Shown here: piece after piece, positions 25,166 to 57,785 of the stretch
How the letters are laid out: the number at the start of each line of letters is the position of its first letter
How positions within the stretch are numbered: the first letter of the stretch is position 1
The notes under the pieces: generated by a model
Database searches by the model: none
What the model was told of the DNA's origin: nothing
The model's input: the letters and a program-made list of their open reading frames with translations, nothing else
Position numbers and translations under genes: made by a program
IMG/VR virus record: IMGVR_UViG_3300012953_000012
Span: 128,001-192,000 of that record
DNA from: a virus
Lineage: Duplodnaviria > Caudoviricetes
DNA length: 64,000 nt
Reading direction: 5' to 3' (one strand)

Positions 25166-25663
25166 CTACGCTACGTTGAAGCCGCCACCCCGCACTACAA
25201 CGACATGGCGGCCTTCCCGCCATGCAAACACTACCCGCTGGAAGACCTCGACAGCCTCCGTAGGAACGCCGTCAGACAGGGGCGGCTCGTAGCACTCAGG
25301 CGGCCCGTGCTTGAGTCTACGGCCCTTTCCCTTACTCCCCCCAGGTCGGCAGAGCGGTTCGTCCCAGGTCAGGCACGCCTTCCCGATCTTGCACACGCCT
25401 TCATCGGAGGCCACGCGCCTGGCGCTGGCTCGGGGGTCTCGCCCCAACTCCCGCACCAGAGGTAGAAAACGCCCGTGTAGGGCGTGTGATAGGGACTCGG
25501 CGGTGATCTCCTTGACCCCCGCTTCCCAGGTGGTCCCCCGGAGCGATTCAAGTACCCCCCAGTGGTCCGCGTCCTCGGGGACCTCCTCCACCAGGAGCAG
25601 CACCTTTTCGGCCTCCCGTCCGGGAAGGGGGGAGGGGTCGGTGAGGTCAAGGATTCTCACCAC
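25166..25663 (-). CDS. Hypothetical protein
   Basis: ORF in the - strand operon with several Cys. Confidence 0.55.
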   Translation of the reverse strand: MVRILDLTDPSPLPGREAEKVLLLVEEVPEDADHWGVLESLRGTTWEAGVKEITAESLSHALHGRFLPLVRELGRDPRASARRVASDEGVCKIGKACLTWDEPLCRPGGSKGKGRRLKHGPPECYEPPLSDGVPTEAVEVFQRVVFAWREGRHVVVVRGGGFNVA

Positions 25664-26252
25664 TCCCCCCTACTTGTTTGAAGAAGCGACTGGCTCCCCC
25701 GGTGTCTCCGAACCGATGGCCGTCTCCGTCCATGGGGAACATGCCGGTCTTCCCGGCTTCGCGCTTTGCGGATCGGCTCGACCCCGCGCTGTGCATCCCT
25801 CCAGCAAGCGAATCAGCATCCAATCGAGCAACGGGGCAATCCGGCTCGCAGATCCAGTTGGCGACAGTCTCCTTGCCTTCTGCGTCCCCATGCTCCACTT
25901 TGTTTTGAAGTCCTTCTGCTGTTCCGTAGACTCCGTGTTTCCCGAAGGCTCCTGTGCTTCCCGGCTTCATGCCCCCAGTAATAGCCTTCACCCTCTTGAC
26001 CCCACCACACCGACAACCTTCAAGGTGCTGGAGGATCACGTTGGCGGGCCATCTTCCTTTCGAGGTCGTAGCGACATAGGCGGGTCGCTCCTTTCGCCCA
26101 AACCCGCTCCAAACCTCCAGTCGGTTGATGGGTATCCGATCCGACCCGACCCGAGAGGCGTCGATGTTGATCCCCCCCGTCCCATGACGGAGGGTGTTGG
26201 CTGCGACGGTCCCTTCGGACAAGGGCTTCCGTAGGACGTGGATCATCCTCAT
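25647..26252 (-). CDS. DNA amino-methyltransferase middle module, copy 2 (no catalytic or SAM motif)
   Basis: RKPLSEGTVAANTLRHGTGGINID..GRWPAN..GDTGGASRFF; ATGA overlap with the tdk stop. Confidence 0.75.
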   Translation of the reverse strand: MRMIHVLRKPLSEGTVAANTLRHGTGGINIDASRVGSDRIPINRLEVWSGFGRKERPAYVATTSKGRWPANVILQHLEGCRCGGVKRVKAITGGMKPGSTGAFGKHGVYGTAEGLQNKVEHGDAEGKETVANWICEPDCPVARLDADSLAGGMHSAGSSRSAKREAGKTGMFPMDGDGHRFGDTGGASRFFKQVGGSGENP

Positions 26253-26857
26253 TGTCGCCCCTTCACCCAGCACGCTCGACAGCGGGCCTCGTACATCCCC
26301 GTCGAGCCGACCTGCACCTGCTCCCCGGAGTCTTGATCAGGCAACCGGAACGAACGAGTGGCAGGCTTGCCACACACCTCGTCCCACTTCCACTGACCCC
26401 CCACGGTTCGTGTTCTTGTGGTCCCGTGTACGCATACGGCAGTCAGTTTGGTCACCTTGTCGGCCACCGCGAGAAGTCGTGCCATCGGCCCGAACGGCTG
26501 ACCATCAGAGTCGAGATCAAGCCCCGCGACGATGACCCGGCGACCTCTGTTTGCTTCTGACTCCAGCACGTCCACGATCTCGTCGTCAAGGAACTGCACC
26601 TCGTCCACTCCGATGACCTTCCCTGTCATGTAGAAGGGCTGTGTTCGGAGAAGGCGTTTGACGTGATCCACGTCCTTGACGGCGACCGCTTCCAGTGTGC
26701 CCCCAACGTGGGTCGCCAGCGAATCCTTGGAGTAGCGGTCGTCAATCGCGGGCTTCATCACAAGGGTGAACTGGTCCGCGATCTGGCACCGACGCAGACG
26801 CCGGATCAACTCCTCTGACTTGCCGCTGTACATGCAGCCTGTGATGGCCTCAAGCAT
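26249..26857 (-). CDS. tdk: Thymidine kinase
   Basis: GCMYSGKSEELIRR, VIGVDEVQF, VAGLDLD..GQPFG, KLTAVC..C, YEARCRAC. Confidence 0.95.
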   Translation of the reverse strand: MLEAITGCMYSGKSEELIRRLRRCQIADQFTLVMKPAIDDRYSKDSLATHVGGTLEAVAVKDVDHVKRLLRTQPFYMTGKVIGVDEVQFLDDEIVDVLESEANRGRRVIVAGLDLDSDGQPFGPMARLLAVADKVTKLTAVCVHGTTRTRTVGGQWKWDEVCGKPATRSFRLPDQDSGEQVQVGSTGMYEARCRACWVKGRQ

Positions 26858-27527
26858 CCTCCTTCCCTCCGATCTGTTTGTAGAAGCGTGAGGCTCCTCC
26901 TGTGTCTCCAAAACCGGGGTCTCCCCGCACCTCATCTGCGGACAATGCCTGACCCAGTCCGTTGCCCCCGCCGTAGATCGTAGAGGTGGTGGAGATGTTG
27001 GCGGTGCGCCCGCCTGTGCTCTTGGTCACACCGCTCTGCTCATCCAATCGTGCGACAGGACAGCCGGATTCACAGATCCAGTTGGCTACCGTCTCCTTGC
27101 CGTCCTTGTCCGTGTGATTGAAGTAGGGGCGGTTCTGCTTCTCGGCAAAGCCGCCGTGCGCTGTAATGGGGGCGGCATGTCGGTGGGGTTTCGTCCCTCC
27201 AGTGATCCCCTTCACCTTCTTGACCCCAGCACGCCTACACCCGTCGAGGTGCTGGAGGACCACGTTCGCGGGCCACCTGCCGAGTTTCTGTGCGTCCGAA
27301 GGCACATAGGACGATCCCGCTGCGTACATGCCAGGGCCGTCACCGATGCCTGTCCTGTCAGCCATCAGGTTGTCCTTCCCTCGACGCACGACGCCTGTGA
27401 CAACGTGCGAGCCGTCACTGGAGATGCGGGATGCGTCGATATTCAACCCGCCCGTGCCGTGCTTCAAGGTGTTCGCGGCCACGGTGCCTTCGGAGAGAGG
27501 CTTACGGAGGACGTGGATCATCCTCAT
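26850..27527 (-). CDS. DNA amino-methyltransferase middle module, copy 1
   Basis: MRMIHVLRKPLSEGTVAANTLKHGTGGLNID..GRWPAN..GGASRFY; ATGA overlap with the N-module stop. Confidence 0.75.
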   Translation of the reverse strand: MRMIHVLRKPLSEGTVAANTLKHGTGGLNIDASRISSDGSHVVTGVVRRGKDNLMADRTGIGDGPGMYAAGSSYVPSDAQKLGRWPANVVLQHLDGCRRAGVKKVKGITGGTKPHRHAAPITAHGGFAEKQNRPYFNHTDKDGKETVANWICESGCPVARLDEQSGVTKSTGGRTANISTTSTIYGGGNGLGQALSADEVRGDPGFGDTGGASRFYKQIGGKEDA

Positions 27528-28126
27528 TCCGGCTTCCTCCCCACACAAACCGGTTCCCACGAAGGTTTCAAAGCGGTTCCCCACCCATCCCAGCGTTGAG
27601 CCTTTTCAACAAGAGGGACGTGGTGCCTCTCCCCGCTCTCTTTCATGAAAGATCCCGGTCCCGCACCAAAACCTTGGCCTCTGTCCAGCGCACCCCTTTT
27701 CCCTTCAGTCTTTTGGGTTTTGTAGCGACCGTGATTCGGGCTTGTGGGATCAGGCCCCCCGTGGGGAACCCCACGCGCCGCCTTGTCCAGAGCCTTGCCG
27801 ATGTTCATGCTCTTGGGGAAGCCTGAGCCGTAGTTCCACGACTCGATCCGAAGGTCGGTGAACCCGGCCTCGGCCATAGCCGCAGCCATCCGATGATAGG
27901 TGCGAGTACCGGAGAACGCCTTGATGACCCCACCGGGTCGGAGCACTCGGTACACTTCGTCCCAGAGGTCGGCTGAGAAGGCGATGCCTGCGCCCTCGGC
28001 ATCCCACGTCTTGCCCATGAACGAGATGTGGTACGGAGGGTCGCAGATGAACGCTCCAACGAAGCCTTCCTCGTATTCACCGAGGACTTCCACACAGTCA
28101 CCGTGTCGTAGAGTCAGCCACTGCAT
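27524..28126 (-). CDS. DNA amino-methyltransferase (beta class) N-terminal catalytic module, copy 1
   Basis: HGDC, DPPY, FMGKTWD, YGSGFPKS, WGTALKPSWEP; lacks FxGxG. Confidence 0.85.
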   Translation of the reverse strand: MQWLTLRHGDCVEVLGEYEEGFVGAFICDPPYHISFMGKTWDAEGAGIAFSADLWDEVYRVLRPGGVIKAFSGTRTYHRMAAAMAEAGFTDLRIESWNYGSGFPKSMNIGKALDKAARGVPHGGPDPTSPNHGRYKTQKTEGKRGALDRGQGFGAGPGSFMKESGERHHVPLVEKAQRWDGWGTALKPSWEPVCVGRKPE

Positions 28127-28134
28127 CGTGCCCC

Positions 28135-28959
28135 CTACAGTCCGAACAGGTCGTCGAGAGAAATGGTCTCGGGCTCGGCTTCGCGTGCCTCGGTGATCTC
28201 AGTGAGGTCGGAAGACACTTCGGCAGCGTTCCATCCAGCATCACGGGTGTTCCAGTACCGGACCCGGCCCTCGGCGATGGTCAGGTACTCCTTCTCCCGT
28301 TCGATGCCGATGAAGTCGTGCCCTGTCTGGACACAGGCGATGCCCGTAGTCCCGCTGCCCATGAACGGGTCCACCACAGGACCTACGTCCTTCGGCACAT
28401 CGTGGAGCAGCCGTGCCATGACGGCGTAGGGCTTCACGGTGGGGTGGACGTTGCGGCGCTTCTTCACCCGGTTCAGGCCGATGTCCTGACCTCCAGGTGC
28501 CTCGACATCCTCGCCTTCCTCGGTCGATGCGATGGCCCCCTGTGCGCCCCCGGACATGCCGAAGACCTTGAGGGGTAGGTGGTCCAGTCCGGCCTCACGT
28601 TCCTTGCGGGCGGCTTTGGCGACGTAGTGCATCTGGTCGGTCGTGCTGTCGGCCACCATGATGCAGTCGCGGACCTCAAAGCCAGTGTCCTCAGCGAAGC
28701 AGGCTCCGGTGTGTCCCGTGGGTTCAGCGGGGTCGTTGGCGAGCATCAGGTGTCCGCCCGGCTTCAAAGCCCGATGGGCCTCGGTGATCTCGTCGAGGGA
28801 GTCCAGAGAAGACTCCAGCACGATGCCGTGAACGCTCTCGTCCTCGTGCTGGGACCAGTCGTAGCCTTTGGTGGCGTAGACGAACACACCCTCGACCCCC
28901 TGGGGGTCACCGGGCGTGATCATGTCACGCAGGTAGTCAATCAGTTCGGGGTTCATCAC
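28135..28959 (-). CDS. DNA amino-methyltransferase C-terminal SAM-binding module with a degenerate N-half
   Basis: GFEVRD, YVAKAARKER, HPTVKP, VDPFMGSGTTG, IGIERE; no DPPY. Confidence 0.85.
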   Translation of the reverse strand: MMNPELIDYLRDMITPGDPQGVEGVFVYATKGYDWSQHEDESVHGIVLESSLDSLDEITEAHRALKPGGHLMLANDPAEPTGHTGACFAEDTGFEVRDCIMVADSTTDQMHYVAKAARKEREAGLDHLPLKVFGMSGGAQGAIASTEEGEDVEAPGGQDIGLNRVKKRRNVHPTVKPYAVMARLLHDVPKDVGPVVDPFMGSGTTGIACVQTGHDFIGIEREKEYLTIAEGRVRYWNTRDAGWNAAEVSSDLTEITEAREAEPETISLDDLFGL

Positions 28960-29157
28960 GGGCAGGTCCTCGGGTCACGGAGTGGGCAATAAGCACGACG
29001 GAGAGTGCCCACACGCAGGCCAATGTACCCACAACCTCCGCGACCCTACGGGTGCGTCGGAAGCGTCGGGGGCGCTTGGTTTTCATGGTCATAGAAGGGA
29101 GTACCCGTTGGTCTGTCTATGGTGACCCCCCATCGTAGACGACGAAGGAACACCCCG

Positions 29158-30609
29158 ATGCCCCGCTACCCAGCACCACAGGTCCAGTACAAGAAGGACG
29201 AACGAGCACGAGCGAAGCACATCGCGGCGGCTCGACGCGACTTCCGAGCCCTGTTGAAGGCGGTGGCACCGGACGCGGCGAAGATCAAGGCGCTCCACAA
29301 GCGAGATCAAAACAAGCAGAAGCGTGCGTTGGTCAAGAGCCTCAAGGGGCGGGGCGACGTGCGTGCATTTCTCGACAAGTACATGGGCACCGAGTCGGCG
29401 AGTCCGAAGGCGTACTCGTGGCGAAACACGGGGCAGTATCTGGTCCGGGACGCGGCGCTTGGGATCAAGAGCCTCCGGGATGTCCTGCCTGCACTGGACA
29501 AGGTGACGAGCAACGGCTTCCAGGCATTGACCGTCGAGGAGTTTCAAGCACCCCTGCGGTCTACGATCCCAGCCCTGCTGCGGGAGTACCTGCCCCAGAC
29601 GGTCGAGGTCAACGTAGACGAGAACGGGACCATCCAGCGGGTCACGGACAGGTTCAACAACGAGTACAAGACCCTGGCAGTCAAGATCGCCCACCAGAAG
29701 GCGCTCCTGAAGAAGTACAACGCCATCGCCAAGCGGGTGAAGCGGGACCTCAAGTCCTCGGACGAGATCACCCGGCTCTCGGCGCTGATCACATCGATCC
29801 TCATGGAGACCGGCATCCGACCCGGCAAGCGAGGCAACGGCGTGGTCAAGACCATCGGCGACAAGGAAGAGTTCATCGAAACCTTCGGAGCCGTGACCCT
29901 GGGGCCTGGGCACGTCAACTTCGTCCGGGACAACTTCGTGGAGTTGAGTTTCCTGGGCAAGATGACCGGCCAGAACACGGCCACGCTGTCCGACCGGGTG
30001 ATCATCAAGGCGCTCCAGGACTATGTGAACAACGCCCTCAAGTCGGGGAGCAAGTACGTCTTCGTGGCCGACGATGGCTACGAGTACACATACAACGACC
30101 TGTACAAGTACTTCCAGAAGCACTTCAAGGGGATTGACCCCACGGACTGGCGCAAACTCAAAGCCTCCGAGACCGTGTTCGATGCCATCCAGGAAGAACA
30201 GGAAGCCCTGTACAGCAGGATTCTGGCCTTCGCAGACAGCGAGGGTGATGATCTCATGGACCGGGTGACCGAAGAGATCGCAGCGACGTTGGACCGAGCC
30301 ATCGCCAAAGCCCAGGTCGCCCTGTCTCACGACAAGGCCACGACGACGAAGAAGCAGTACATCAACCCAGAGGTACTGCTTCGGTTCCTGAGCACCGCGA
30401 CGATGGGAGGCGCGACGTTCCGCGATGCCATCCTCGCAGGGAAGCCGACGTTGGCGTTTGACCCGCAACGGTTCATCGAGGTCGCCAGCGCAGCAGCCGT
30501 AGGCAAGAGAGCCAGCCGCCGTCTGCTCCTCGCCGGGGGTGCGGCCATGACCTTGGAAGAGATGCTGGACGTGCTGGCGGACTCACTGATGATTGAAGGG
30601 GAGAGGTAG
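29158..30609 (+). CDS. Type IB DNA topoisomerase (poxvirus/bacterial TopIB-like)
   Basis: Catalytic pentad recognisable: ETGIRPG (R), FLGK (K), TDWRK (R), ALSH (H), KQYINP (Y); ETFGAVTL; start may be 29119. Confidence 0.85.
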   Translation: MPRYPAPQVQYKKDERARAKHIAAARRDFRALLKAVAPDAAKIKALHKRDQNKQKRALVKSLKGRGDVRAFLDKYMGTESASPKAYSWRNTGQYLVRDAALGIKSLRDVLPALDKVTSNGFQALTVEEFQAPLRSTIPALLREYLPQTVEVNVDENGTIQRVTDRFNNEYKTLAVKIAHQKALLKKYNAIAKRVKRDLKSSDEITRLSALITSILMETGIRPGKRGNGVVKTIGDKEEFIETFGAVTLGPGHVNFVRDNFVELSFLGKMTGQNTATLSDRVIIKALQDYVNNALKSGSKYVFVADDGYEYTYNDLYKYFQKHFKGIDPTDWRKLKASETVFDAIQEEQEALYSRILAFADSEGDDLMDRVTEEIAATLDRAIAKAQVALSHDKATTTKKQYINPEVLLRFLSTATMGGATFRDAILAGKPTLAFDPQRFIEVASAAAVGKRASRRLLLAGGAAMTLEEMLDVLADSLMIEGER

Positions 30610-30612
30610 ACG

Positions 30613-30882
30613 ATGGAAGTGAACCCGAAAGACCCGAAGACCTACATCCCTGTCCTGGTCGTCCTGGCGGGAACGCTCGGCGCGGGGTCGATGCTGGGAC
30701 TGACCATCGAACCGGAAGAGACTACGGCCCTACGGGTCGAGAACGCCATGCTCACAGAGCGCACGTCGAACCTGGAGGCGCAGACCGAGACCCTGGAAGC
30801 GCGGGTAGCATCCCTTGAACGGATCGTCGAAGGGTGCCGGGCGGTCGTGGATGCGTGCCGCACGGCGACCACAGGCCCATAG
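30613..30882 (+). CDS. Membrane-anchored coiled-coil protein
   Basis: N-terminal TM helix then heptads. Confidence 0.6.
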   Translation: MEVNPKDPKTYIPVLVVLAGTLGAGSMLGLTIEPEETTALRVENAMLTERTSNLEAQTETLEARVASLERIVEGCRAVVDACRTATTGP

Positions 30883-30898
30883 AGGGGAGACAAGACCC

Positions 30899-31228
30899 AT
30901 GATGAAGCACCTTTCCGACCTCATGACCGTGGTCCAGATCGCAGTGGTCTGGACCTTCGTCTTCTGCGCCGCAACCATCGTGGCCACCGGCCACGCACAG
31001 ACGCCAGGTCCGAAGATGGACCCTCAGTCGGCAGACGAAGCCATCGAGAACCTGGAAGAACTTATGGGTCAGTACGAGCAGGGTCAGTACGCGAACCAAC
31101 CATCGGGACTGGCAGCAGCACAAGCCAGGATCACGGAGTTGGAGATGGCCCTGGGACTGTTGAGCAAGCAACACGAAAGCCTACAGGCAGAGCACGTTGC
31201 ACTACAGGAACGGTGCGCCCAGCGGTGA
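30899..31228 (+). CDS. Membrane-anchored or secreted coiled-coil protein
   Basis: GGAGA RBS; hydrophobic N-terminus, heptad C-terminus. Confidence 0.6.
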   Translation: MMKHLSDLMTVVQIAVVWTFVFCAATIVATGHAQTPGPKMDPQSADEAIENLEELMGQYEQGQYANQPSGLAAAQARITELEMALGLLSKQHESLQAEHVALQERCAQR

Positions 31229-31271
31229 CCCTACCGCCGCCACCATGACCCGTCCCGAAGGGGGGAGAGAG

Positions 31272-31556
31272 TCAAGCGTCTCCCTGGGATTGCTCGGCAG
31301 TCATAGCCAGAATGACCTCGTCCAACTCTCCTGCGATGTCTTTCAACTGTTGCCGTAGGGCGAGGGCTTCCAGCAGGGAGTGAGAAGTCACGTCGTGGAA
31401 GACCCTACGAGGAAGCACAGCCAGGATGGACCCCGTGCTCTCGGCAAGTGAGACCGCCATCTCATGAACCTCTTCCAGGTCCACGTCTGACACACCGCCC
31501 TCGGTCCAGAGGATCACGAGGTCGTAGGGACCCGCACGCACCGTGGTCCACGGCAT
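31272..31556 (-). CDS. Hypothetical protein
   Basis: Ordered C-terminal part of a longer ORF; start uncertain. Confidence 0.45.
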   Translation of the reverse strand: MPWTTVRAGPYDLVILWTEGGVSDVDLEEVHEMAVSLAESTGSILAVLPRRVFHDVTSHSLLEALALRQQLKDIAGELDEVILAMTAEQSQGDA

Positions 31557-32164
31557 GTTCACAGGAGTGCTGGGAGGAGGGGTTCGCCGGGTCATGGGAG
31601 GGACTGTACCCCCCGCCTCGCCCCAGCCGTAGTATGGGCTCACAGGCATCCCTGTTGGGCGTGGGGTTGTGTGCGGGTTCCTTGGGGCATGATCGGGCCG
31701 GGTGGGGGGACGATGGACGTAAGATCCAGGTCGTGATCCTGCGTGAGAGCCGGAAAACCAGGGATCAAGACAAACAGGCATAGAAATCAGGAACCGAAAT
31801 GGGTTCGTAGTGATCCTGGCCGGGCCGGGCTGTAGCGATTCCAAACCTGGCCGCAGTGAAATCGGGAGTGATCTCTGTTCCGTGATCTCTGACCCCTAAG
31901 CCCGGACGACTGGCTTCTGCTGCTTTGAGTGAGTGGGTGCTTGAGATGGCGTGACACCTACGACAGTGATCCCACGTTGTTGTAGATCGGCAGAGCCCCG
32001 GACCCGCACAACCAACGTGTAGTCACATCCGACCCAACAGCATGTAGTCACACGAGATCACGGTGACCCCACAACAGCCGCTGCGAAGAGACCTGAGGAG
32101 GCGGAGAGGAGCAGCCGAGGAGACGCTGAGGAGCCAGAGTGAGAAATCGCTGAACGCAAAAAAG

Positions 32165-32216
32165 CGCCCCCGCCCTCGCGCCTTCCTGGAACAAGGGAAG
32201 GGCGAGGGCGGGGGCG
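32165..32216 (-). terminator. Intrinsic terminator
   Basis: cgcccccgccctcgc...gcgagggcgggggcg stem with an A-run on its left (U-tail on the - strand), directly after a - strand ORF. Confidence 0.65.
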
Positions 32217-32233
32217 GTCAGATTGTCGAGGGC

Positions 32234-32731
32234 TTACTTGCCTTCGGAAGCGCGGACCTTGGCAACGCTGTTGCGCTTGTCGCCGTTGGCGAAGTCAGCC
32301 AACTGGGCGGCGTGGTGGTGAGCCAGGCGGTGGCAGACAGCCACCATCGACTGGCCTGCGAAGGTCTTGCTGAACTCCTTGGCGGGGGTTTTGCTCCAGG
32401 ACTTGCGCCCGGTGTAGGGGCACTTGCGAAGGAGGATCCAGGGGCTCTTACGGAAGCAGCCCTGGACGCGCTGGCGCATCACGCCGTCTTGCTGGCCACC
32501 GTCGAGGATGGCACCGAGGCGGGAGCCGACCTTGGAGTAGTTGTGGCCGAAGCCGATCCGGTTGTCGGCGTGGGTGGACTCGCTGGCCTTCTCAGAGGCC
32601 AACTGGCTGGCGTAGATGCGAGCCACGCCGCGCATGGCGGCGAAGTCGCCGCGAGTCATCCAGCCGAAGGGGGTCTTGACCCGGCGGGTGTCAGCAAGGA
32701 GGGCGCGGATGGAGGAAGCAGTGTGGGTCAT
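32234..32731 (-). CDS. Hypothetical early-type protein
   Basis: GGAGA RBS, leader hairpin and bipartite motif upstream. Confidence 0.7.
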   Translation of the reverse strand: MTHTASSIRALLADTRRVKTPFGWMTRGDFAAMRGVARIYASQLASEKASESTHADNRIGFGHNYSKVGSRLGAILDGGQQDGVMRQRVQGCFRKSPWILLRKCPYTGRKSWSKTPAKEFSKTFAGQSMVAVCHRLAHHHAAQLADFANGDKRNSVAKVRASEGK

Positions 32732-32810
32732 GTAATCTCCGTTGGCTGCATGGCAGCACTGGGGGAAGGGGAGCAGTCGGAGGGGCCGGGGTGGCTCCCT
32801 CTCTCACATA

Positions 32811-32838
32811 CTTACGGAAGCAGCAGACGGTTTTAACG
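32811..32838 (-). promoter_or_regulatory. Bipartite CGTTAA-N16-CGTAAG element (putative early promoter)
   Basis: One of 9 copies with identical spacing, all intergenic and oriented into the downstream gene. Confidence 0.7.
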
Positions 32839-32969
32839 GGACGGGATCAAAAAAGATCACGGGCCGATTTCTCGCTGGGGCAAGACGCAAAAAACCCGCC
32901 CCCGTGGCAGTCCTGACATCTCTTCCAGAGCAGGACCGCACACGGGGGCGGGAGTAAGTCGGGGCCAGG

Positions 32970-33281
32970 CTACGACCTGGCCTTCTTGATGGCAGCACGG
33001 CCAGCCTTCTCGGCCTCGGCCATGCCGTTGGCGAAGCCGCTGGCGAGGAGCACCTGCGGCGGCCAGCCGCGCCACGCACGACGCTTGTCGTGAGGGCCAC
33101 GGCGCATGACGCGCCAGGCCACAACGCCTTGCTGCCAGTCTTGCACCGACTCCCCGGAGAGGGGGCGGGTGTGGATCTCGCTCTCGCTCTTGTCCGCGTG
33201 GCGGATCGAGTTGGAGCAGTAGGACTGCCAGTCGGCCAACGCCAGGGCGTTGGCGACGGCGTGGATGTCGAGAGTAGGCAT
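32970..33281 (-). CDS. Hypothetical early-type protein
   Basis: GGAGA RBS plus leader hairpin; starts MPTLDIH. Confidence 0.7.
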   Translation of the reverse strand: MPTLDIHAVANALALADWQSYCSNSIRHADKSESEIHTRPLSGESVQDWQQGVVAWRVMRRGPHDKRRAWRGWPPQVLLASGFANGMAEAEKAGRAAIKKARS

Positions 33282-49583: not shown

Positions 49584-49685
49584 CTACCGGGTGAGGCTCC
49601 ATCTCCAGAGATCGAACGCCAGCAGCGTGCCGATGACGAGAGCCAGCAGCGACCAGATGACCCACGTTGGAACCTTGTCGTTCAC
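49584..49685 (-). CDS. 33-aa single-TM peptide
   Basis: MNDKVPTWVIWSLLALVIGTLLAFDLWRWSLTR; stop lies inside the late-type element. Confidence 0.4.
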   Translation of the reverse strand: MNDKVPTWVIWSLLALVIGTLLAFDLWRWSLTR

Positions 49686-49725
49686 ACCCTACCGCGACCA
49701 TAGGGTCGCCACCGGCATCCCGCTG

Positions 49726-49765
49726 ACCCCACAACAACAGTGACCCCACAACAACAGTGACCCAG
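49726..49765. repeat. Tandem repeat TGACCCCACAACAACAG x2.3
   Basis: Direct reading; a related GTGACCCCACAACA occurs at ~32063. Confidence 0.75.
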
Positions 49766-50191
49766 GGAAGGCTGAAACCTCCTCCTTGGGGACATCGGAC
49801 CTTTGGCCTTTTCTGCCCCTCGTAAGGGGGCGTAGTTACTGGGTTTTTTTGAAGCGAATAAAAACAGAGTGACTTCGAGCCTCCTCAAAAGCCTCCGGCT
49901 CCGTGATCCCACGGCCCATCTCCGCCCATCTCGGACGCACCTCGGAGCCCTTGCGGACAGGCACCTACGGACAGAATGATCCCAGTTCAGCCTCTCGTCA
50001 GGCAAAGGCTCTCGTCGAAAACCCCGGAAGGACCTATGCTTTGAACTTTTTTGAAGTTTTTTGGTTTAGTCTGTCCGCCGAGCGGGGTTCGCCCCGTCTC
50101 GCGCACGCGAGGCTCTGGAGGGCCACTGTTGTGTGACCCCATGACCCCAGGCGGTATCTCGGCTATCCATCCCCAGGGGTAGAGGTTTCCC

Positions 50192-51514
50192 ATGGCTCAC
50201 GACGACGACGCACCGAAGACCGGCGAAGACCAGGCCCCGTTTGCCCTGGCTCAGAACCCTGCGCCCAACCCTCCCTCGGGCCAGGCGTACCTGACGGACA
50301 AGGAATCGCTGACCCAGCAGATCATGGCGACCTTCCGTGCGGTGCTGCCGAGCAACTACGTCGCCCAGGTCAACGGCCCCTGGTACTCACTCCAGTTTCA
50401 GGCCATGGCCGAGCAGTTGGCTGAGATCCAGATCAGCACGACTGAGATCTACAAGGACTCCGGGTTCGATTTCACCCGAACAGACTTCTTGTGGCAGGTG
50501 CTGGGGTCGCTGGTGTTCCCAGGAGCCACGGACCAGTCAGGTATCCCTCAGATTGACGGTGACCTGGCCTACCGCGAGTTCCTGCACAAGATGGTCATGC
50601 TCCTGCTTCAAGGAGCAACGAAGGCCAGCATGGAAGGCGGCCTTGAAGCCCTGGACCCGAACGTGGTGGCGACCATCACCGAACGCTACCTGGAGACACC
50701 CCCGCGTGATCCTGTGGGTGCATGGACCATCGAGGACCAGTTCCTGATCGACATCTTCATCGAAGGTTCCACGGGGAACACCTTCCCGGCTGACCCTTTC
50801 GTGCTCCAGCGAAATGCAGAACTCGTCCTGGCCGCCTTGAAGCCTGCCCACGTCTTCTACGGCTACTCGTACCTGTTCCGGGACGCCTTCGACAAGGTAG
50901 CGGACGACACAGGGGGCATGAGCCTCGACCTGGACTCCTACTACTACGCCGACCTGCGGAAGTGGTGCCTGGGGGCGCAGCGCATCAGCGGCACCGGAGA
51001 CACCCTCTCCACCAGGACCCTGTTCACCGACCCCGACGTGTCGTTCCAGAGCATCCGGGCGGGAGCCGTCCTGGAGATTGCTGACGGCACGAACGCAGGC
51101 CGCCACCGCGTCGTGAGCACCCGCGCCCTTCTCTATGGGGCAGAAGCCGTCGCCAGGTCGTACACGACCTCCACGGGCCTCACAGGCACCCTCACGGCGG
51201 TCTCCGATGACACGGTAGTGGACCCTGGGCGAGACTGGGGTGCTTTGCCGGTGGACACGACCATCACCATCGCAGATGGCCCCAATGCGGGGACGTACCG
51301 GCTCGACACCGTGCTGGGAGAAACCGGCGGCCCTATCGGCACGGTTGGCATCAGCGGCACTGAGGTCAGGCTCTCTCCGAGCACCCTCCAGGTGGCGCGG
51401 CGCATGGACGTGGTTGCGACAGGGCAGACCTACACGGTGAGCGTGGACCGCCTGGGTGTGCAGACCCCACGGCCTGTGTCGGGCGAGGACGTCACGCTCC
51501 AGTTTCTCCTGTGA
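50192..51514 (+). CDS. Putative baseplate wedge/tail protein (P2 gpI-like N-domain)
   Basis: YREFL..L..LLLQGATK, LAALKPAHVF; beta-rich C-half; late-type element at 50152-50166. Confidence 0.6.
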   Translation: MAHDDDAPKTGEDQAPFALAQNPAPNPPSGQAYLTDKESLTQQIMATFRAVLPSNYVAQVNGPWYSLQFQAMAEQLAEIQISTTEIYKDSGFDFTRTDFLWQVLGSLVFPGATDQSGIPQIDGDLAYREFLHKMVMLLLQGATKASMEGGLEALDPNVVATITERYLETPPRDPVGAWTIEDQFLIDIFIEGSTGNTFPADPFVLQRNAELVLAALKPAHVFYGYSYLFRDAFDKVADDTGGMSLDLDSYYYADLRKWCLGAQRISGTGDTLSTRTLFTDPDVSFQSIRAGAVLEIADGTNAGRHRVVSTRALLYGAEAVARSYTTSTGLTGTLTAVSDDTVVDPGRDWGALPVDTTITIADGPNAGTYRLDTVLGETGGPIGTVGISGTEVRLSPSTLQVARRMDVVATGQTYTVSVDRLGVQTPRPVSGEDVTLQFLL

Positions 51515-51558
51515 CGGTAGACGCTCTATGTTTTCGGGGGGTGTAGGAGAGTAGGATC

Positions 51559-52044
51559 ATGCCCCCCTACGATGTGGCTGTGAAGCGTGACGACTACAGC
51601 GTAGAGCCAATGGGGTCAGTGCGGTCCTACCTGGGGACGTACAAGGACATCATCGTCTACCACGACTACCAGCCGCTCTTGCTGTTTTGGAACATCTCGG
51701 ACATCGCGAACAACCGGGTGATCTGGGAGACCTACTGGGACTACAAGGAGATGGGGGCCGAGTCGGCCTACATTCAGTACGCCCTGTACTTCTGCGTGTC
51801 GCTGGGAATGCTCTTCAGCCTCCCGAACCTGCGCTCCTGTGCTCGCTTCGTGGCGGCCTACCTGCTGCTCTACGTCTTCTCCACCGCGAAGTTCGTCGTG
51901 ACCTTCCTGACGGACGAGGAGTTTGCCCAGAACCCGGACATCAAGCGGAGCCTGGTCGTGACCGGGGTCTACTTCACCCTCTGGTGCTGGATCTACTTGA
52001 AGATGCGGGTCGAGTTGGCCCATCGGAACGCCAATGGCGAATGA
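51559..52044 (+). CDS. Multi-pass membrane protein
   Basis: 3 hydrophobic segments; AGGA RBS; late-type element at 51515-51529. Confidence 0.65.
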   Translation: MPPYDVAVKRDDYSVEPMGSVRSYLGTYKDIIVYHDYQPLLLFWNISDIANNRVIWETYWDYKEMGAESAYIQYALYFCVSLGMLFSLPNLRSCARFVAAYLLLYVFSTAKFVVTFLTDEEFAQNPDIKRSLVVTGVYFTLWCWIYLKMRVELAHRNANGE

Positions 52045-52375
52045 CGCTACCACTACGGCTGCCATCGTCGCCGCTGTGACAGGGGTGATGTCCGCAGGTG
52101 CGTTCAAGTTTTACGAGTTCATCCTAAAGCAGCGCCGTGAGGTCCAGAAGGAGGAGAAGGCCGAGCAGATGCTCTACCGCGATGACCTCATTCGCCGAGT
52201 CGAGAAACTGGAGAGCGAGCGGGACGACCGGATAGAGGAAGCCATCGGATTCCGCGCTGAGATCAGCGCCATGAAGGTCCAGATCGACTTCATGAAGCAG
52301 GAGAATGACCTGCTGAAAGGGCAGGTCGAACTGGTCAAGCACGAGAACCAGATCCTCAAAGACACCCTACGGTAG
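52034..52375 (+). CDS. Single-TM plus coiled-coil protein (possible lysis accessory)
   Basis: TM helix then heptads; function inferred. Confidence 0.55.
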   Translation: MANDATTTAAIVAAVTGVMSAGAFKFYEFILKQRREVQKEEKAEQMLYRDDLIRRVEKLESERDDRIEEAIGFRAEISAMKVQIDFMKQENDLLKGQVELVKHENQILKDTLR

Positions 52376-52409
52376 TGATTCGATAGGCTGCTCCCGGTAG
52401 GAGATCACC

Positions 52410-53180
52410 ATGAACCGAACCGTGCTACGACGTATCCTTGCCTCCGAAGGCTTGCTCCCTCGGAATAAGCAGGCGTCAAAGGGACTTGCTCGCGCCTTCG
52501 CCGACTTCTACAGGGGGGTCCAGAGAGATTTGGGGCCTGACCCGGCAGAGCGTTTGGATGTTCGCAAGGCTGTCTCTGCCGACTTGAAGAAGATCGTGGC
52601 CGGGATGGGGAACGCCTCGGCCAACCTCGGTACTGTGTATGCTGACGACGACAACTTCCTGTACGAGACAGAGGTGACGATTGCCGACGACGATTGGTCG
52701 AGCCTTGAAGAAAACATCGTACTCCCCACAAGGTACTACGTCACAGGCACGATCTCGGTGAGTCCCCTTCCATTCAAGGACTCCTACCTCTACGACTTCC
52801 TTGAATCCTTGATCTCCCAGCGCGAAAAGAGAGCGATGGTGAAGAAGTGGGACGCCTTCATCCTCAAGGTCATGGAGTCGGAGGACTTTCAGCAAGCCCT
52901 CTTGCGGAAGTTCTCTCGATGGCAAGAGGATGCTCACAGTGCGCTGCAAATCGAAGCCTATGATTGGGTAGACTCGGTAGCAAGTGGGATCGAACCCTTC
53001 TCCAATGAGGGGTCCACGGTCACCTACTTCCCATCACCGGAAGACGATTCCTACTGGAACATCCGCGCTGACTTGCTCGGAGTTAACCGTCGTGGGGAGT
53101 ACACCATCAAGTTCACCGGGGTGATGGATGCGGAGAAGATCGTGGACGGGATGGAGTTTGATTGGGTAAACCCCCGCTAA
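52410..53180 (+). CDS. Hypothetical protein with LRRILASEGL..KQAS leader
   Basis: AGGAGA RBS; late-type variant at 52370-52384. Confidence 0.7.
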   Translation: MNRTVLRRILASEGLLPRNKQASKGLARAFADFYRGVQRDLGPDPAERLDVRKAVSADLKKIVAGMGNASANLGTVYADDDNFLYETEVTIADDDWSSLEENIVLPTRYYVTGTISVSPLPFKDSYLYDFLESLISQREKRAMVKKWDAFILKVMESEDFQQALLRKFSRWQEDAHSALQIEAYDWVDSVASGIEPFSNEGSTVTYFPSPEDDSYWNIRADLLGVNRRGEYTIKFTGVMDAEKIVDGMEFDWVNPR

Positions 53181-53524
53181 TCGGTCGGCTTGATCCGGGC
53201 CATCGCTTCTTCGACAGCACCGCCGACAAACTGCTCGGCCATCTTCGCCACATGCACCCGGACACGCTCTTCCAGGTCACCAGGCGTGATCTCCTCGGGC
53301 TTCTTGCCTTGTGAGATCATCGTGATCGCCATGACGTAGGCTTCACGTCGCAGGTACTCGATGATGAACGCATGGGCGACCTGGACCAGTCCACCGGACG
53401 GCCACTCAGCAGCACGCTGGGCATCCCCAGGCGTGGCAGGACGATGCGCCGTGAACAGGGCGTCGTCTGTGACTCGGCGTCGGACCTCCAGAAGGAAGCG
53501 GACGGTGTCGAACTGATCGGTCAT
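53177..53524 (-). CDS. Hypothetical protein
   Basis: Coupled - strand ORF. Confidence 0.6.
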   Translation of the reverse strand: MTDQFDTVRFLLEVRRRVTDDALFTAHRPATPGDAQRAAEWPSGGLVQVAHAFIIEYLRREAYVMAITMISQGKKPEEITPGDLEERVRVHVAKMAEQFVGGAVEEAMARIKPTD

Positions 53525-53533
53525 GAGGCTACT

Positions 53534-53992
53534 CTACCCAGCCCATGCCTCCGACTCGGGGGCGATGCTGGGGAATCGACCGCCGCCACCCATGCCGTAC
53601 AAGAGAACCGCGAGCCCTTCGTCGTCACGGGCCATCTCCTTGAGCCTTTCGGTGAGGGACTTCTCCAGGTTGTACTCGGCCTTCGCCTCGTCCATACCGT
53701 CGCGGTACTTGACGAAGAAGGTGACCCTGTTGCCCTTGTCAGTGACCTGTGTCACGTCACCCAGGCCGAGGCGTCTGCCGACGTCCTTCAGATCATCAAC
53801 CGCACTGTCGTAGTCACGGCCATAAGGGTCGTCGAAACGGCCCCATTCAGATGCCCTCGTGTCCAGAGGGACCTCCACGCTCAGGAGGTTGTCGTCCATC
53901 CCGATGCGGCGGAAGTAGGCACGCCGCACCATCCGGTCCTGCCGGTAGGCGTACTCCAGTGCGACACGGTGGGTAGATGCGGTACGAATCAT
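53534..53992 (-). CDS. Hypothetical protein with RTAS/RVALEYA leader
   Basis: AGGAGA RBS; CGGTAG-N5-CTAT at 54021-54035. Confidence 0.7.
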   Translation of the reverse strand: MIRTASTHRVALEYAYRQDRMVRRAYFRRIGMDDNLLSVEVPLDTRASEWGRFDDPYGRDYDSAVDDLKDVGRRLGLGDVTQVTDKGNRVTFFVKYRDGMDEAKAEYNLEKSLTERLKEMARDDEGLAVLLYGMGGGGRFPSIAPESEAWAG

Positions 53993-54029
53993 GGCGGTAT
54001 CTCCTGCCTCTGCCGAGGCGATAGAGACC

Positions 54030-56096
54030 CTACCGCGCAGACTGCTGAACCGTGTCCTCTGCTGGGGTCAGGGTTTCCCAGTCGATCTCACAGGAACCAC
54101 CGACACAGGCCAGGGTCTGTGCGCCGTTGCCCATGTCCTCGGTTTCGTACCGAGAGAGCAGCGCGTAGTCGAGAACAGGGAAGTCCAGGAGCCGGGTGCG
54201 GTACTCGGACTCGGTGATCTCTTCGTAGGGGGCCAACTCGTACTTGCCGCCGTCGTAGGGCAGGAAGGAAAGCCCCGTGACCTCGTCGAAGTGCTCGTAG
54301 AGCCAGTCACCAACCTGACCCCACTCGTCTTCGCGGACGTAGACCGTGGCGCTCTGGTTGTGGCCGCGCTCCGAGCACCAGGTCCGCATGATGTGGAGGT
54401 AGCGGCCCAACTGCTCCAGGGCGGTCTCGTCGTTCCGGGTCATGCAGCCTTCGGGGGCCTTGACTGGAAACTCGACAACCCAGGTCGGGCAGTCAGCATC
54501 GGGGCCATTCTTGTACTTCACGTCCTTGAAGACAGGAGCACCGGAGTCCCGGACCAGGTGGAACAAGGGGTCGTTGGCACTCACCCGGACGCGCCGGATG
54601 TAGAACTCTGCGTACCGGGTGTGGAAGCCGCTCGCGCAGTCCACCGCCTGGGAGGAGTTGCCGCTGGGCTTGCCACAGGTCACGGACGCAGGCATCTCGA
54701 TGCCCAGGTGTGCAGCCGCTTCGGCGGCAGTCTCCAGGGCGACCTGGTTGAAGTAGGACATCGCCTCGGCATCGTTGGAGAGCGCCGGGTTGTCACAGTG
54801 GCCGGTGATGTCCACCCCGAGCAGGCGGTCTTCGTTGCAGTGCTGAGTCCAGGCAGGACGCAGGTAGGGGAAGTCGGTGAACGACGCCTGGAGGGCACCG
54901 ATCCAGGTGGCGGTGCGAACCTTCGCAGCGAAGGACTCGCGGGTGTCTGTCTCCCGCATGACGGCAGCCGAGAGGTTGCAGAACTGCCCGCCGCCGCCCT
55001 TGCCTGTCCAGGGGCACTCGGCTCTGGAGAAGCGAAGCAGGATCTCACCGCAGGGGTTGGACCGCATCTCGCCGTTGCGCTCTTCACGACGGCTGGAGGG
55101 GATCATGTAGAAGCCGCGTTCGCCGGAACCGCTGTTCCGAAGGGCGTCCCACTCGCGGTCGAAGATGTCACGGTCTGGCTTGGCGTCCCAGAACGCCGAG
55201 ATATTCGCCATGTAGCGACACTCGGGGAACGACCCCTTGCGCCAATCCTTTGCGTGTCGCATGAGTTCGTCGTCAGGGTCAGAGAAGCAGATCAACGCTG
55301 CGCGGCGCACACCACCAGCCTTGACGATCTCACCGATCATGCAGGCGATGTCACTGACCTCGATGGTCCGCAACTGGCGGCCTGAGGCACCGTCGATGAT
55401 CTCTTGGCAGAACTCCAGGAGGAGACGGAGAGGCTTCGGCCCGGAAGCACGGCCACCCTTCGTCTGGCAGCGGGCACCTTCGGGGCGGATCTGCGAGTAG
55501 TCAAACTCGACGGTGTGTCCCTTCCACATGTGGGTCAACCCGTTGAACACCGCATCGGCCCAGCCGACTGTGCTGTCCGGGATGGTGTACTGGATCGCGT
55601 CACCAGAACGAGGGGCGACCTCTGGGAGGTTGCCGACGAACTTGCGCTCGACCGAGTAGCCGACACCCGTGCCCATCATCAGGATGTACAGCATCTCCCC
55701 AAACGCCTTGAGGTTGTCGAGGGGCACGAAGGAGCAGTTGTAGATCATCGTGTTGTCACGCGCTGCCGCAGGGCCAGCGGACCACAGAGCACGCATCGAC
55801 GGAAGGACTCCCATCGAGAGCATCCCCTCCCGGATGTCCCCCAAAACCGCAGAAGGAACGGAACGCTCACCACCAACGAAGTCGCAGTAGCGGTCCACCG
55901 CCTCCTCGTAGGTCTCGCGGCGGCCCTCTTCTTCGCGCCAGCGTAGGTACGAGCGGGTCACAACAAACTGAGACAGGGCGTTGGGGTAGCCGAAAACCGG
56001 CTTGCGGGTGGGAACGAGGTCAGGGCTGCTACTACACGACTCATGCCTGGTCGGGGTGCTGGATTGTGCGTCTGACAGGGGCATGAGTTCGATCAT
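54030..56096 (-). CDS. nrdJ: Class II (B12-dependent) ribonucleotide reductase
   Basis: PSMRALW, YNCSF, GTGVGYSV, GGRASGP, GGVRRAALI, NPCGEI, CNLS, KPSGNSSQ, C-terminal CxxxxC; no nrdB partner. Confidence 0.9.
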   Translation of the reverse strand: MIELMPLSDAQSSTPTRHESCSSSPDLVPTRKPVFGYPNALSQFVVTRSYLRWREEEGRRETYEEAVDRYCDFVGGERSVPSAVLGDIREGMLSMGVLPSMRALWSAGPAAARDNTMIYNCSFVPLDNLKAFGEMLYILMMGTGVGYSVERKFVGNLPEVAPRSGDAIQYTIPDSTVGWADAVFNGLTHMWKGHTVEFDYSQIRPEGARCQTKGGRASGPKPLRLLLEFCQEIIDGASGRQLRTIEVSDIACMIGEIVKAGGVRRAALICFSDPDDELMRHAKDWRKGSFPECRYMANISAFWDAKPDRDIFDREWDALRNSGSGERGFYMIPSSRREERNGEMRSNPCGEILLRFSRAECPWTGKGGGGQFCNLSAAVMRETDTRESFAAKVRTATWIGALQASFTDFPYLRPAWTQHCNEDRLLGVDITGHCDNPALSNDAEAMSYFNQVALETAAEAAAHLGIEMPASVTCGKPSGNSSQAVDCASGFHTRYAEFYIRRVRVSANDPLFHLVRDSGAPVFKDVKYKNGPDADCPTWVVEFPVKAPEGCMTRNDETALEQLGRYLHIMRTWCSERGHNQSATVYVREDEWGQVGDWLYEHFDEVTGLSFLPYDGGKYELAPYEEITESEYRTRLLDFPVLDYALLSRYETEDMGNGAQTLACVGGSCEIDWETLTPAEDTVQQSAR

Positions 56097-56199
56097 CGTG
56101 GTGTCCTCGGAGGCGTAGGGTTCGGGTTTCATAAAGCGTCGGGCAGCCATTAGAGCCTCGACTGTGAAGCCCTCTCTGAACCCGCCCCTATACGGCGGG

Positions 56200-57201
56200 C
56201 TATTGACCCCCTACCGAGGAACAGCCCCTTAAGAGAGCCGCCTCACATGCTACCCACGGAGCGGGAACACCCCTCAACACGCCCCTGTCTACATGAGCAA
56301 GATCACGGACGAGGTTCACAAGATTTCTTGTGCCCCACTTTTTCGCGGCGGGGATTGTCGTGCGCTCCGTTACCCAGGAGGGTGACCCCAGCATGGCACC
56401 GATCTGATGAGGGGTGGTGCCACGCTCCAGGAGCAGGGATGCCTGGAGCCATCGGTAGGCGAGGTCTGCCGGGCCACCGCGTGCTCGGAGGAGGAGCATC
56501 GTCGGGTCAGTCACCGACTTACGGCGTAGGGTCACAAGGGCTTTGGCCATCTTCGCCGTGTGCCTCGACGCGAGAGCATCCCGAACGGGCTGCATGTCTA
56601 CGCCGATGTGGCCCTTCACAACAGCCTTGACCTCAGCCGAGGTGATCTGCTTGCCGCCTTGCGACCGGACCAAAGCCGTGATCTTGCTCATCTCGTAGGA
56701 GAGGACACCGAGGTCCACGCCCATGACGCCGACCATGGCTTTCGCCAGGTCAGTGCTGAGAGCCTGCTGGTTGAGGGTGAGTCGATGTGCCTCCATGACG
56801 AGGAACTTGACGGCCCGCCCCTCCCTGTCCTGTTTCCGGGCAGGGATGCAGTAGGTGACTGTGTGTTTCTTCTTCACCAGGGCGACCGCTGGATGCTTCT
56901 TCGGGTCTGCGTTGCCCTCCACCTCCATGAGGATGCACACCCGCCCAGGCTTGTCGGCCTCGTGGGCACTCACAGTCTCGGGATCAACCTTTCCGCCTGG
57001 CACCAGGATCAACGTCGGCTGCCCGAAGGTAGTGCCCATGGAGAGCGCGTCGATGACCTCACCGTCTGACCCGGCATGGACAACCTCGTAGCCTGCCTGG
57101 TACGCGCCCATCATGGCGTGACGTAGCCATCGACGGCACAGGAACCGCTCGTCCCCGGTCACGGCCAGCACGGGAGGGGGTTTGTCCCACGAGAGTTTCA
57201 C
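56200..57201 (-). CDS. holA: DNA polymerase III delta subunit-like
   Basis: AVTGDERFL, DLGVLSYEMSKITAL, ITSAEV..VV, D.D..VLRG. Confidence 0.75.
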   Translation of the reverse strand: MKLSWDKPPPVLAVTGDERFLCRRWLRHAMMGAYQAGYEVVHAGSDGEVIDALSMGTTFGQPTLILVPGGKVDPETVSAHEADKPGRVCILMEVEGNADPKKHPAVALVKKKHTVTYCIPARKQDREGRAVKFLVMEAHRLTLNQQALSTDLAKAMVGVMGVDLGVLSYEMSKITALVRSQGGKQITSAEVKAVVKGHIGVDMQPVRDALASRHTAKMAKALVTLRRKSVTDPTMLLLRARGGPADLAYRWLQASLLLERGTTPHQIGAMLGSPSWVTERTTIPAAKKWGTRNLVNLVRDLAHVDRGVLRGVPAPWVACEAALLRGCSSVGGQ

Positions 57202-57785
57202 GGCTTCCTTCCCACGATGACAGGCTCCCACGAAGGCTTCAAGGCGGTGCCCCACCCATCCCACCTCTGTGCCTCGGGGGTGGCTGGAGCGGTAAGAAGA
57301 CCTGGTTCGGAGGTGTACTGGTACTTCGACGCATCTCGATCCCCCGCGAAACCGTGCGTCCCTGTGCGTTTACCTTCTCCATGGTAGTTGGGGTCTCTCC
57401 CGATCACCTCACGCTTGGCCCCCGCAGCCTTGTCGAACGCCTTGCCGATGTTCATCGACTTGGGGAACCCGCTTCCGTAGTTCCATGAGTCCACCTGAAG
57501 GTCGATGAACCCTGCCTGCTCCATCGCGTAAGCCATGTGATGGAAGGTCCGCGTCCCGGAGAATGCCTTGATGACCCCGCCGGGCCGGAGGACCCGAAAG
57601 GCTTCCGTGACCCATGCTTCATGCCACTTTCGCTGGGCCGCGCCTTCCCCCAACTTGTCAAAGTCCTTCCCCATGAAGGACAGGCCATAGGGAGGGTCGG
57701 AGACCACAGCCCCGATGGAACCGTCTTCGTAGCCTTTGAGCACATCCACGCAGTCCCCGTGTCGCAGGATCAATCTCTGGGTCAT
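57198..57785 (-). CDS. DNA amino-methyltransferase N-terminal catalytic module, copy 2
   Basis: HGDC, DPPY, YGSGFPKS, WGTALKPSWEP..GRKP stop; no FxGxG. Confidence 0.85.
   Translation of the reverse strand: MTQRLILRHGDCVDVLKGYEDGSIGAVVSDPPYGLSFMGKDFDKLGEGAAQRKWHEAWVTEAFRVLRPGGVIKAFSGTRTFHHMAYAMEQAGFIDLQVDSWNYGSGFPKSMNIGKAFDKAAGAKREVIGRDPNYHGEGKRTGTHGFAGDRDASKYQYTSEPGLLTAPATPEAQRWDGWGTALKPSWEPVIVGRKP

Follow-up and report, generated by a model that had tools for sequence, protein, structure and literature searches.

Does a methyltransferase gene that lies in pieces in a viral genome represent a gene in decay, or an enzyme that is assembled from several proteins? The question is raised by a 64,000-nucleotide stretch of DNA (the window), which comprises bases 128001 to 192000 of the 205,564-bp IMG/VR virus record IMGVR_UViG_3300012953_000012. 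CheckV put the completeness of this record at 46%, and it is therefore a fragment of a huge phage; DNA near-identical to the record was found in marine metagenomes only, and the public runs listed for it included no RNA data set. In the window, the motifs of a beta-class amino-DNA methyltransferase are distributed over separate open reading frames (ORFs) of three kinds, here named D (with the S-adenosylmethionine-binding motifs), N (with the catalytic half) and M (the insert between them). Sequence comparison and structure prediction together suggest that these proteins probably constitute a three-component methyltransferase, in which one S-adenosylmethionine (SAM, or AdoMet) scaffold, D, serves alternative N and M modules.

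The first gene cluster reads, in transcript order, D, N1, M1, tdk, and M2, and a second catalytic-half gene, N2, lies 30 kb away. All five module ORFs are open at the coordinates given in the original prediction, and they reside on the minus strand. D (274 amino acids [aa], positions 28135 to 28959) matches Pfam family PF01555 (N6_N4_Mtase; profile length 221, gathering cutoff 26.7 bits) at PF01555 positions 148 to 220 with 72.1 bits. The two N modules match the other end of this profile: N1 (200 aa, 27524 to 28126) at positions 4 to 89 with 26.5 bits, marginally below the cutoff, and N2 (195 aa, 57198 to 57785) at positions 3 to 90 with 36.9 bits. M1 (225 aa, 26850 to 27527) and M2 (201 aa, 25647 to 26252), which share 51% identity, are separated by the thymidine kinase gene tdk (26249 to 26857, minus strand; PF00265, E value of 3.4e-42), in agreement with the earlier assignment. 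The count of two N, two M, and one SAM module given in the original prediction is correct for the window; genome-wide, a tblastn search of the whole record yielded a third stand-alone M module, M3, outside the window on the plus strand (genome G000:C1:64395-65036), where it sits between a DnaB-like helicase gene and a primase gene, upstream of a family A DNA polymerase gene. The record thus holds at least 2 N, 3 M, and 1 D, a tally that is a lower bound because the genome is only 46% complete.

The relationship of these pieces to an intact enzyme is apparent from single-chain relatives. In the "DNA methylases" of mycobacteriophages, such as gp58 of Mycobacterium phage Edtherson (381 aa), N, M, and the SAM-binding C-half follow one another in a single polypeptide, and the same N-M-C order is present in a 533-aa ORF of the uncultured 485-kb phage LR745208.1 and in about 74 ORFs recovered in a census of 79 IMG/VR loci. 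Laid end to end, the window's pieces have the same motifs in the same order as these phage enzymes, namely, DPPY, GSGFPKS, EPxxxxRKP, GTGxLNID, GRWPxN, GGASRF, AKAxxxER, HPTVKP, and DPFxGSGT; M.RsrI, CcrM, M1.HpyAVI, and M.BceJIV are relatives of the single-chain type with solved structures. N1 carries motif IV (DPPY) at residues 29 to 32, followed by motifs V to VIII, and terminates at strand beta7 (...EPVCVGRKPE); N2, 57% identical to N1, likewise has DPPY and ends with ...EPVIVGRKP. DPPY is invariant across 44 members of the N family, and AdoMet motifs X and I are absent from both N and M. These motifs, invariant in the D family, are found in D, which consists of an N-like half (Dn, approximately residues 1 to 122), a YVAKAxRxERE strand, motif X (HPTVKP), motif I (DPFMGSGTT), and a C-terminal tail. 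M1 begins with a beta7-like strand (MRMIHVLRKPL), continues through GTGGLNID and GRWPAN to a variable, Cys-containing middle, and closes with GGASRFYKQ. The first 21 residues of M2 are identical to those of M1 and its middle is different, and the N terminus of M3 reads MRMVHVLRKPL. No Pfam family was matched by M1 or M2 and no sequence in the PDB by M1, and both proteins align to the middle of the single-chain phage methylases. Compared with the single chains, then, the polypeptide is interrupted twice, behind beta7 and behind the insert, and the first interruption has beta7 on either side. The SAM half bears an extra, eroded N-like half, and N and M occur in several copies. Motif IV, the target-recognition region, and motif I, which the single-chain relatives have in one polypeptide, are here encoded by three separate ORFs in the permuted gene order D (motif I), N (motif IV), M.

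The junctions between the genes were then read directly from the DNA. At the N1/M1 junction (27524 to 27541, minus strand), the N1 end, GRKPE-TGA, overlaps the M1 start codon by 4 nucleotides (nt) in the sequence ATGA, and the G-R-K codons (GGGAGGAAG) make up a Shine-Dalgarno-like, GGAGG-like site 8 nt before the M1 ATG. ATGA overlaps also link tdk with M2 and the holB-like gene with N2, while M1 and tdk overlap by 8 nt and the helicase gene and M3 by TAATG; tdk is accordingly coupled in translation to both of its M neighbors. A GTGA overlap occurs between N2 and the downstream gene, with the same ribosome-binding-like arrangement at the N2 end before the GTG of that gene. Hence, of the proposed coupling of N and M genes by ATGA and GTGA overlaps, the ATGA part applies to N1 and M1; the GTGA joins N2 to a gene other than an M module.

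Could the pieces simply be ordinary methylase genes that were broken by mutation or by assembly frameshifts? A frameshifted gene would indeed produce split Pfam matches, and the last 14 residues of one N homologue, P0028, lie in an alternative frame, which may be due to a real frameshift or a sequencing error. Against this stand the termini, which more than 100 homologues of diverse sample origin have in common. A search with N1 gave 2,461 matches in the size range of 110 to 350 aa; the C terminus falls 0 to 4 residues past RKP in 90 of the 120 best homologues, the remaining 30 mostly show close variants at the end (xKP, RKK, RKT), and the pattern persists at identities down to about 40%. For M1, 1.8 billion cluster representatives were searched and 6,988 homologues were obtained; of the top 150, about 100 are stand-alone and roughly 200 to 230 aa long, and they are matched from residue 1. 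D has 6,219 matches that cover its whole length, including the N-like half. A scan of IMG/VR with M1 as a single protein gave no match; the IMG/VR loci were retrieved with an alignment-based profile scan for M modules. The order D-N-M-tdk-M, with a topoisomerase IB gene before D, recurs in three independent marine assemblies (L007 to L009). Relative to L007, the ratio of nonsynonymous to synonymous substitution rates (dN/dS) is well below 1 (D, 0.08; M1, 0.21; N, 0.18 to 0.21); the dN/dS values computed between paralogues (0.25 to 0.50) were discarded since dS was saturated. The Logan assembly of the probable source run is an independent contig that is identical over window positions 25600 to 29000 with 0 gaps; joints in a sponge metagenome, at 85% likeness, derive from relatives and were left out of consideration. 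Furthermore, because the beta7-RKP strand both ends N and starts M, as had been noticed at the outset, no single indel would restore a normal chain. Together, shared termini, recurrent synteny, low dN/dS, an identical Logan contig, and the duplicated RKP strand exclude decay and assembly error, and virtually no credence is left for broken genes. A maintained split, as proposed originally, is strongly supported by the hundreds of stand-alone N, M, and D homologues with the same termini, by synteny, and by dN/dS.

A maintained split might nonetheless yield one chain if the pieces were joined, by programmed frameshifting at ATGA or by trans-splicing of split inteins. The 4-nt overlap of N1 and M1 would suit the former, and marine metagenomes are known to contain phage genes that split inteins have fractured (PMC2677866). 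A read-through product of N1 and M1, however, would carry the beta7-RKP strand twice, the gene order D, N, M differs from the chain order, and the gene preceding M2 is tdk and that preceding M3 a helicase gene, neither being an N module. The hidden Markov models of the N and M families span these proteins from the first to the last residue and leave no room for intein halves, and a Pfam scan of the modules matched no intein family. Since the profiles run end to end and M2 and M3 lie behind unrelated genes, frameshift fusion and split inteins are both very unlikely.

If the proteins remain separate, D becomes the central component. The original prediction described its N-terminal half as degenerate, and this description had to be revised. 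A comparison of Dn with the N family by hhalign gave a probability of 93.8% (E value of 1.7e-7) over the alphaD-beta6 region; in Dn, the position of motif IV is variable rather than conserved, and the beta7 strand is missing. Dn nevertheless has motifs of its own that are invariant or nearly so (SVHG, EPTGHTGAC, and GFEVRD), and in the census of 79 loci no split system with a C-half lacked it. The single-chain enzymes of that census contained no clear Dn, with one weak 31-bit match in L028. The conserved motifs and the presence of Dn in all split systems with a C-half mark D, on comparison of sequences, as a conserved scaffold and Dn as a strongly conserved domain rather than a decaying remnant. 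An hhalign match of the D YVAKA segment to the N KALDKAA segment was set aside as low-complexity-like similarity.

Two further features of D family members are recorded here. The D C terminus (28135 to 28160, minus strand) is an acidic-hydrophobic tail, ...SLDDLFGL, that is conserved throughout the family, and the single-chain LR745208.1 enzyme ends with a similar ...SILDLF. The tail resembles C-terminal peptides with which replication proteins attach to sliding clamps, and it might itself bind a clamp; a search for the beta-clamp domain PF02768 found none in the partial genome. In addition, two D-type proteins, at L018:8327-10238 (637 aa) and L038:7435-9994 (853 aa), have an insertion of about 400 aa between Dn and the SAM half, which may be an intein or an extra domain.

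Structure prediction was then used to analyze how the three proteins might fit together. D, M1, and N1 were folded together in three runs with their own family alignments, and N1 was the scored partner. N1 obtained an ipSAE (interface confidence score) of 0.87, versus 0.34 for the best control; in calibration, 58 of 80 solved complexes attained the ipSAE mark, as did 2 of 110 mismatched pairs. At least 82% of the contacts were common to the three runs, and the partner pLDDT (predicted local accuracy) was at least 71. The contacts predicted with most confidence are as follows. D residues 194 to 197 (beta1, before DPFMGSG) contact N1 residues 23 to 26 (beta4, before DPPY), and D residues 215 to 220 (beta2) contact N1 residues 3 to 7. 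In these predicted contacts, the canonical methyltransferase sheet is rebuilt from two proteins, with beta4 and beta1 paired in trans. D residues 81 to 87 (PTGHTGAC) meet a helix at N1 residues 74 to 82 (TRTYHRMAA), and M1 residues 1 to 6, 26 to 31, 84 to 89, and 212 to 216 meet N1 residues 178 to 195; Dn is thus modeled as packing on the other face of N, and M as docking on the conserved WDGWGTALKPS segment of N. AlphaFold models were also made of D alone (predicted template modeling score, 0.51) and of an M-D fusion (pLDDT, 78). Both match known methyltransferases as two separate half-domains only (Z scores of 5 to 9), matches from Foldseek and VIA searches that say little beyond class I methyltransferase halves. 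Since Dn and the C-half match as separate bodies and never as one intact domain, Dn seems, in these models, not to fill the beta1 edge in cis, in keeping with the three-chain model.

These results permit a working mechanism to be formulated. D would bind AdoMet through motif X, motif I, and beta1 to beta3, while also carrying Dn, a conserved counterpart of the other half in which the catalytic motif is eroded. N would contribute the active catalytic half, which begins at beta4 with DPPY and ends exactly after beta7, and would complete the Rossmann fold in trans, bringing DPPY to the cofactor. M would correspond to the large insert at the site where beta-class enzymes carry their target-recognition domain; it is predicted to dock on N through conserved motifs, with its variable middle left free for DNA recognition, and it would lie next to D as well, judging by fusions of M with D. 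Alternative N and M modules would share the single D.

The fusions came from other phages, in which M and D are joined in proteins of 400 to 480 aa. One of them, P0121 (422 aa), directly follows a stand-alone N in L010, and P0186, P0200, P0213, P0217, and P0219 are further examples; in the 79-locus census, split systems have stand-alone N and M alongside either Dn-C or M-Dn-C. In a rare departure from the usual cut, at L063:9454-11131, an N-plus-half-M ORF is followed by a half-M-plus-C ORF, which may reflect a real frameshift or a sequencing error. The M-D fusions, the three-chain model with its beta4/beta1 pairing, and the presence of DPPY in N proteins that lack a SAM site all favor the multisubunit enzyme that had been proposed. 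They also bear on the notion that N and M have some other, stand-alone role, as DNA-binding proteins or antidefense decoys, with D an inactive relic or a different SAM-binding protein. It is true that D has no motif IV, N no SAM site, and M no known family, and that N2 and M3 reside among replication genes. Nevertheless, the catalytic-half motifs of N, including DPPY, are invariant, as are motifs X and I of D, a pattern for which catalysis under selection is the only expectation; the fusions tie M to the SAM half, and the model rebuilds a canonical active site. We therefore consider a nonenzymatic role improbable, though less so than the joining of the pieces into one chain.

Does one D indeed serve several N and M modules? 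The locus L012 contains an array of D followed by about six N and six M, and in L018 six M are followed by D, two N, and one more M. The termini in these arrays are those seen above: N ends with ...VGRK(P), and M starts with M-I/V-x-x-x-V-x-RKPL and ends with ...ASRFFKQ. Searches of the whole contigs of five array-type records revealed one D each, together with 1 to 6 N and 2 to 8 M, and on each contig searched the sole SAM half of this family is in D. The docking surfaces point in the same direction. The M1 positions predicted to contact N1 are identical in M1, M2, and M3 in 23 of 27 cases, versus 59 of 198 positions elsewhere, and N1 and N2 are identical at 57 of 76 predicted interface positions versus 59 of 124 others. 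Thus, with the interface taken from the model, the docking parts are constant and the remainder is variable and mosaic among paralogues. One-D arrays and conserved docking residues accord with the original idea of one SAM subunit common to several N and M, and a single D that serves several N and M would make several holoenzymes possible per phage.

A more restricted arrangement would keep the split but not the mixing: only cognate sets, for example, D with N1 and M1, would form, and N2, M2, and M3 would be time-specific or redundant alternates, or would regulate by competing for D. N1 and M1 are neighbors with translational coupling, N2 and M3 lie in distant replication operons, which could mean different timing, and the computed results do not distinguish promiscuous from cognate pairing. 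On the other hand, the numbers of M and N do not match (7 and 2 in L018, 3 and 2 here), the predicted docking residues are nearly identical among paralogues, and each contig has a single D. Cognate-only pairing is hence an unlikely account, although it is the most serious competitor of a shared D with alternative partners.

The variable parts of the modules give some indication of what alternative partners might achieve. N has two variable cassettes, V1 past DPPY and V2 between beta6 and beta7, which reassort among close relatives: the V1 and V2 types are a and 1 in N1, b and 2 in N2, c and 1 in P0002, b and 1 in P0003, and c and 2 in P0016. V1 of P0003 is 100% identical to V1 of N2, and its V2 is 78% identical to V2 of N1. 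Because the V1/V2 cassettes reassort and the remainder of M varies, both N and M are diversifying, which fits a role in target choice without proving one. M is recognition-like by its position in the chain. The holoenzymes would most likely differ in DNA specificity as N6-adenine methyltransferases. N6-adenine enzymes, M.RsrI and CcrM among them, usually have motif IV in the form DPPY, and by this analogy N6-methyladenine is the likelier product of the system. The likely benefit would be that phage DNA is shielded against several restriction systems of the host, as phage orphan methyltransferases generally do. The fullest version of the proposal, in which a single scaffold with a pseudocatalytic half that holds the assembly together combines with interchangeable N and M to give an N-by-M repertoire of specificities from shuffled cassettes, is a plausible but tentative one that we would put at slightly under even chances.

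Some additional observations concern the M modules. The middle of the long modules shows a CxC...CxxxC pattern, with four Cys in M2, M3, and P0123 and three in M1, which may represent a zinc site; short M modules lack the entire Cys-bearing segment. An identical 21-nt stretch, AATGAGGATGATCCACGTCCT, extends over the start codons of M1 and M2 (27507 to 27527 and 26232 to 26252, minus strand), and recombination across it would remove M1 and tdk and place M2 behind N1.

Several points weigh against the enzyme with a shared D as we describe it. The three-chain score may partly be owed to remembered intact methyltransferase folds, because the chains are halves of a split domain, and it was obtained with custom alignments and three chains, unlike the calibration setup. 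When D was replaced in a control, N1 scored 0.34 against M1 alone, so that the N-M contact by itself is weakly supported. The sequence does not explain the role of Dn, and a Dn placed at beta1 in cis would leave N without a partner. M has no solved or annotated relative, and its recognition role rests on chain position only. Unequal module counts and irregular array order obscure the pairing rules, and further D-type genes may exist, with the genome about half complete. Methyl transfer itself, the target base, the free mixing of modules, and the antirestriction role are what we infer.

As for the surroundings of the modules, the cluster is flanked by a gene for a eukaryotic-type topoisomerase IB (PF01028, E value of 3.5e-13; 29119 to 30609, plus strand) and, on the other side, by one for a SET-domain protein (PF00856; 24585 to 25223, minus strand), and both genes also adjoin the D-N-M-tdk cluster in the Tara scaffold L007. 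N2 has a weakly delta-prime-like gene on one side and the next replication gene on the other, and the names holB and holA given to these neighbors have a weak basis: the holB-like gene (57782 to 58399, minus strand) matches PF13177 at 22.2 bits, below the cutoff of 27, and the "holA" gene (56200 to 57201, minus strand) matched no Pfam family. A separate, complete methyltransferase is encoded at genome G000:C1:203854-204831 (plus strand), in which motif I (DPFAGG) precedes SCPPYW; it belongs to a different permutation class, is possibly N4-cytosine specific, and has no relation to the split system. A megablast search of window positions 25000 to 30000 against 50,697 phage records gave no match.

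How does the proposed enzyme compare with known systems? Enzymes of this class are treated as single chains acting as dimers, and class beta enzymes are described as dimers with a division of labor (PMC7544214); the word "split" is absent from that 2020 review, and our search of the literature, within its incomplete coverage, found no description of a naturally split amino-methyltransferase, which leaves priority unproven. If the proposal is true, nature can keep a class I methyltransferase fold as two half-sheets that belong to different proteins, and phages could multiply methylation specificities against host restriction by a simple route. Hundreds of ORFs that are called "hypothetical" or "partial methylase" in phage genomes from metagenomes would also be accounted for, and programmable DNA methylation would gain a natural toolkit of recognition modules that can be exchanged.

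M.AquI and M.EcoHK31I are natural two-polypeptide C5-cytosine methyltransferases (PMC3404938), and they resemble the system described here in that a methyltransferase domain is placed on separate polypeptides that must associate. They differ in that they belong to the C5 family with its PC motif and consist of two single-copy pieces, with no pseudo-half and no alternative modules; C5 motifs (PF00145, PC) were not matched in our modules, which match PF01555 only and have DPPY as the catalytic motif. The pairs MettL3-MettL14 and MTA1-MTA9 combine an active subunit with a partner in which motif IV is eroded, and the MTA1 complex (MTA1c) includes the DNA-binding proteins p1 and p2 (PMC7544214, PMC9174199). 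By analogy, an active motif IV chain would work with an eroded paralogue here too, with DNA binding on separate proteins as in MTA1c, and the phage enzyme would be a bacterial-virus parallel to these pairs. In MettL3-MettL14 and MTA1-MTA9, however, the active subunit keeps its own SAM site in one intact fold, whereas in the phage system the eroded half shares its chain with the SAM site, the active half is separate, and neither chain is a complete fold.

Type I restriction-modification systems consist of HsdM2-HsdS with exchangeable specificity subunits (PMC3510504, PMC3874165). The likeness is in the separate, exchangeable specificity subunit, the conserved docking, the variable recognition part, and the coupled genes, and the phage modules, in the fullest version of the proposal, would parallel the Type I hsdS shufflons at the protein level and be widespread in marine huge phages. 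HsdM, however, is by itself a whole enzyme of the gamma class, and M has no relation to HsdS, whereas here the catalytic fold itself is divided; no module matched HsdS or HsdM families in Pfam at E values up to 0.01. Finally, the Bacillus phages SPR and phi3T encode multispecific C5 methyltransferases, which likewise have several recognition modules for several targets in one enzyme system. Their recognition domains are in one polypeptide, whereas those proposed here are separate proteins of the amino-methyltransferase family. The multispecific C5 enzymes of Bacillus phages are mentioned in PMC8936443. Taken together, the combination of a divided Rossmann fold, a SAM half that bears an eroded half, and multicopy cassettes differs from each of these known systems.

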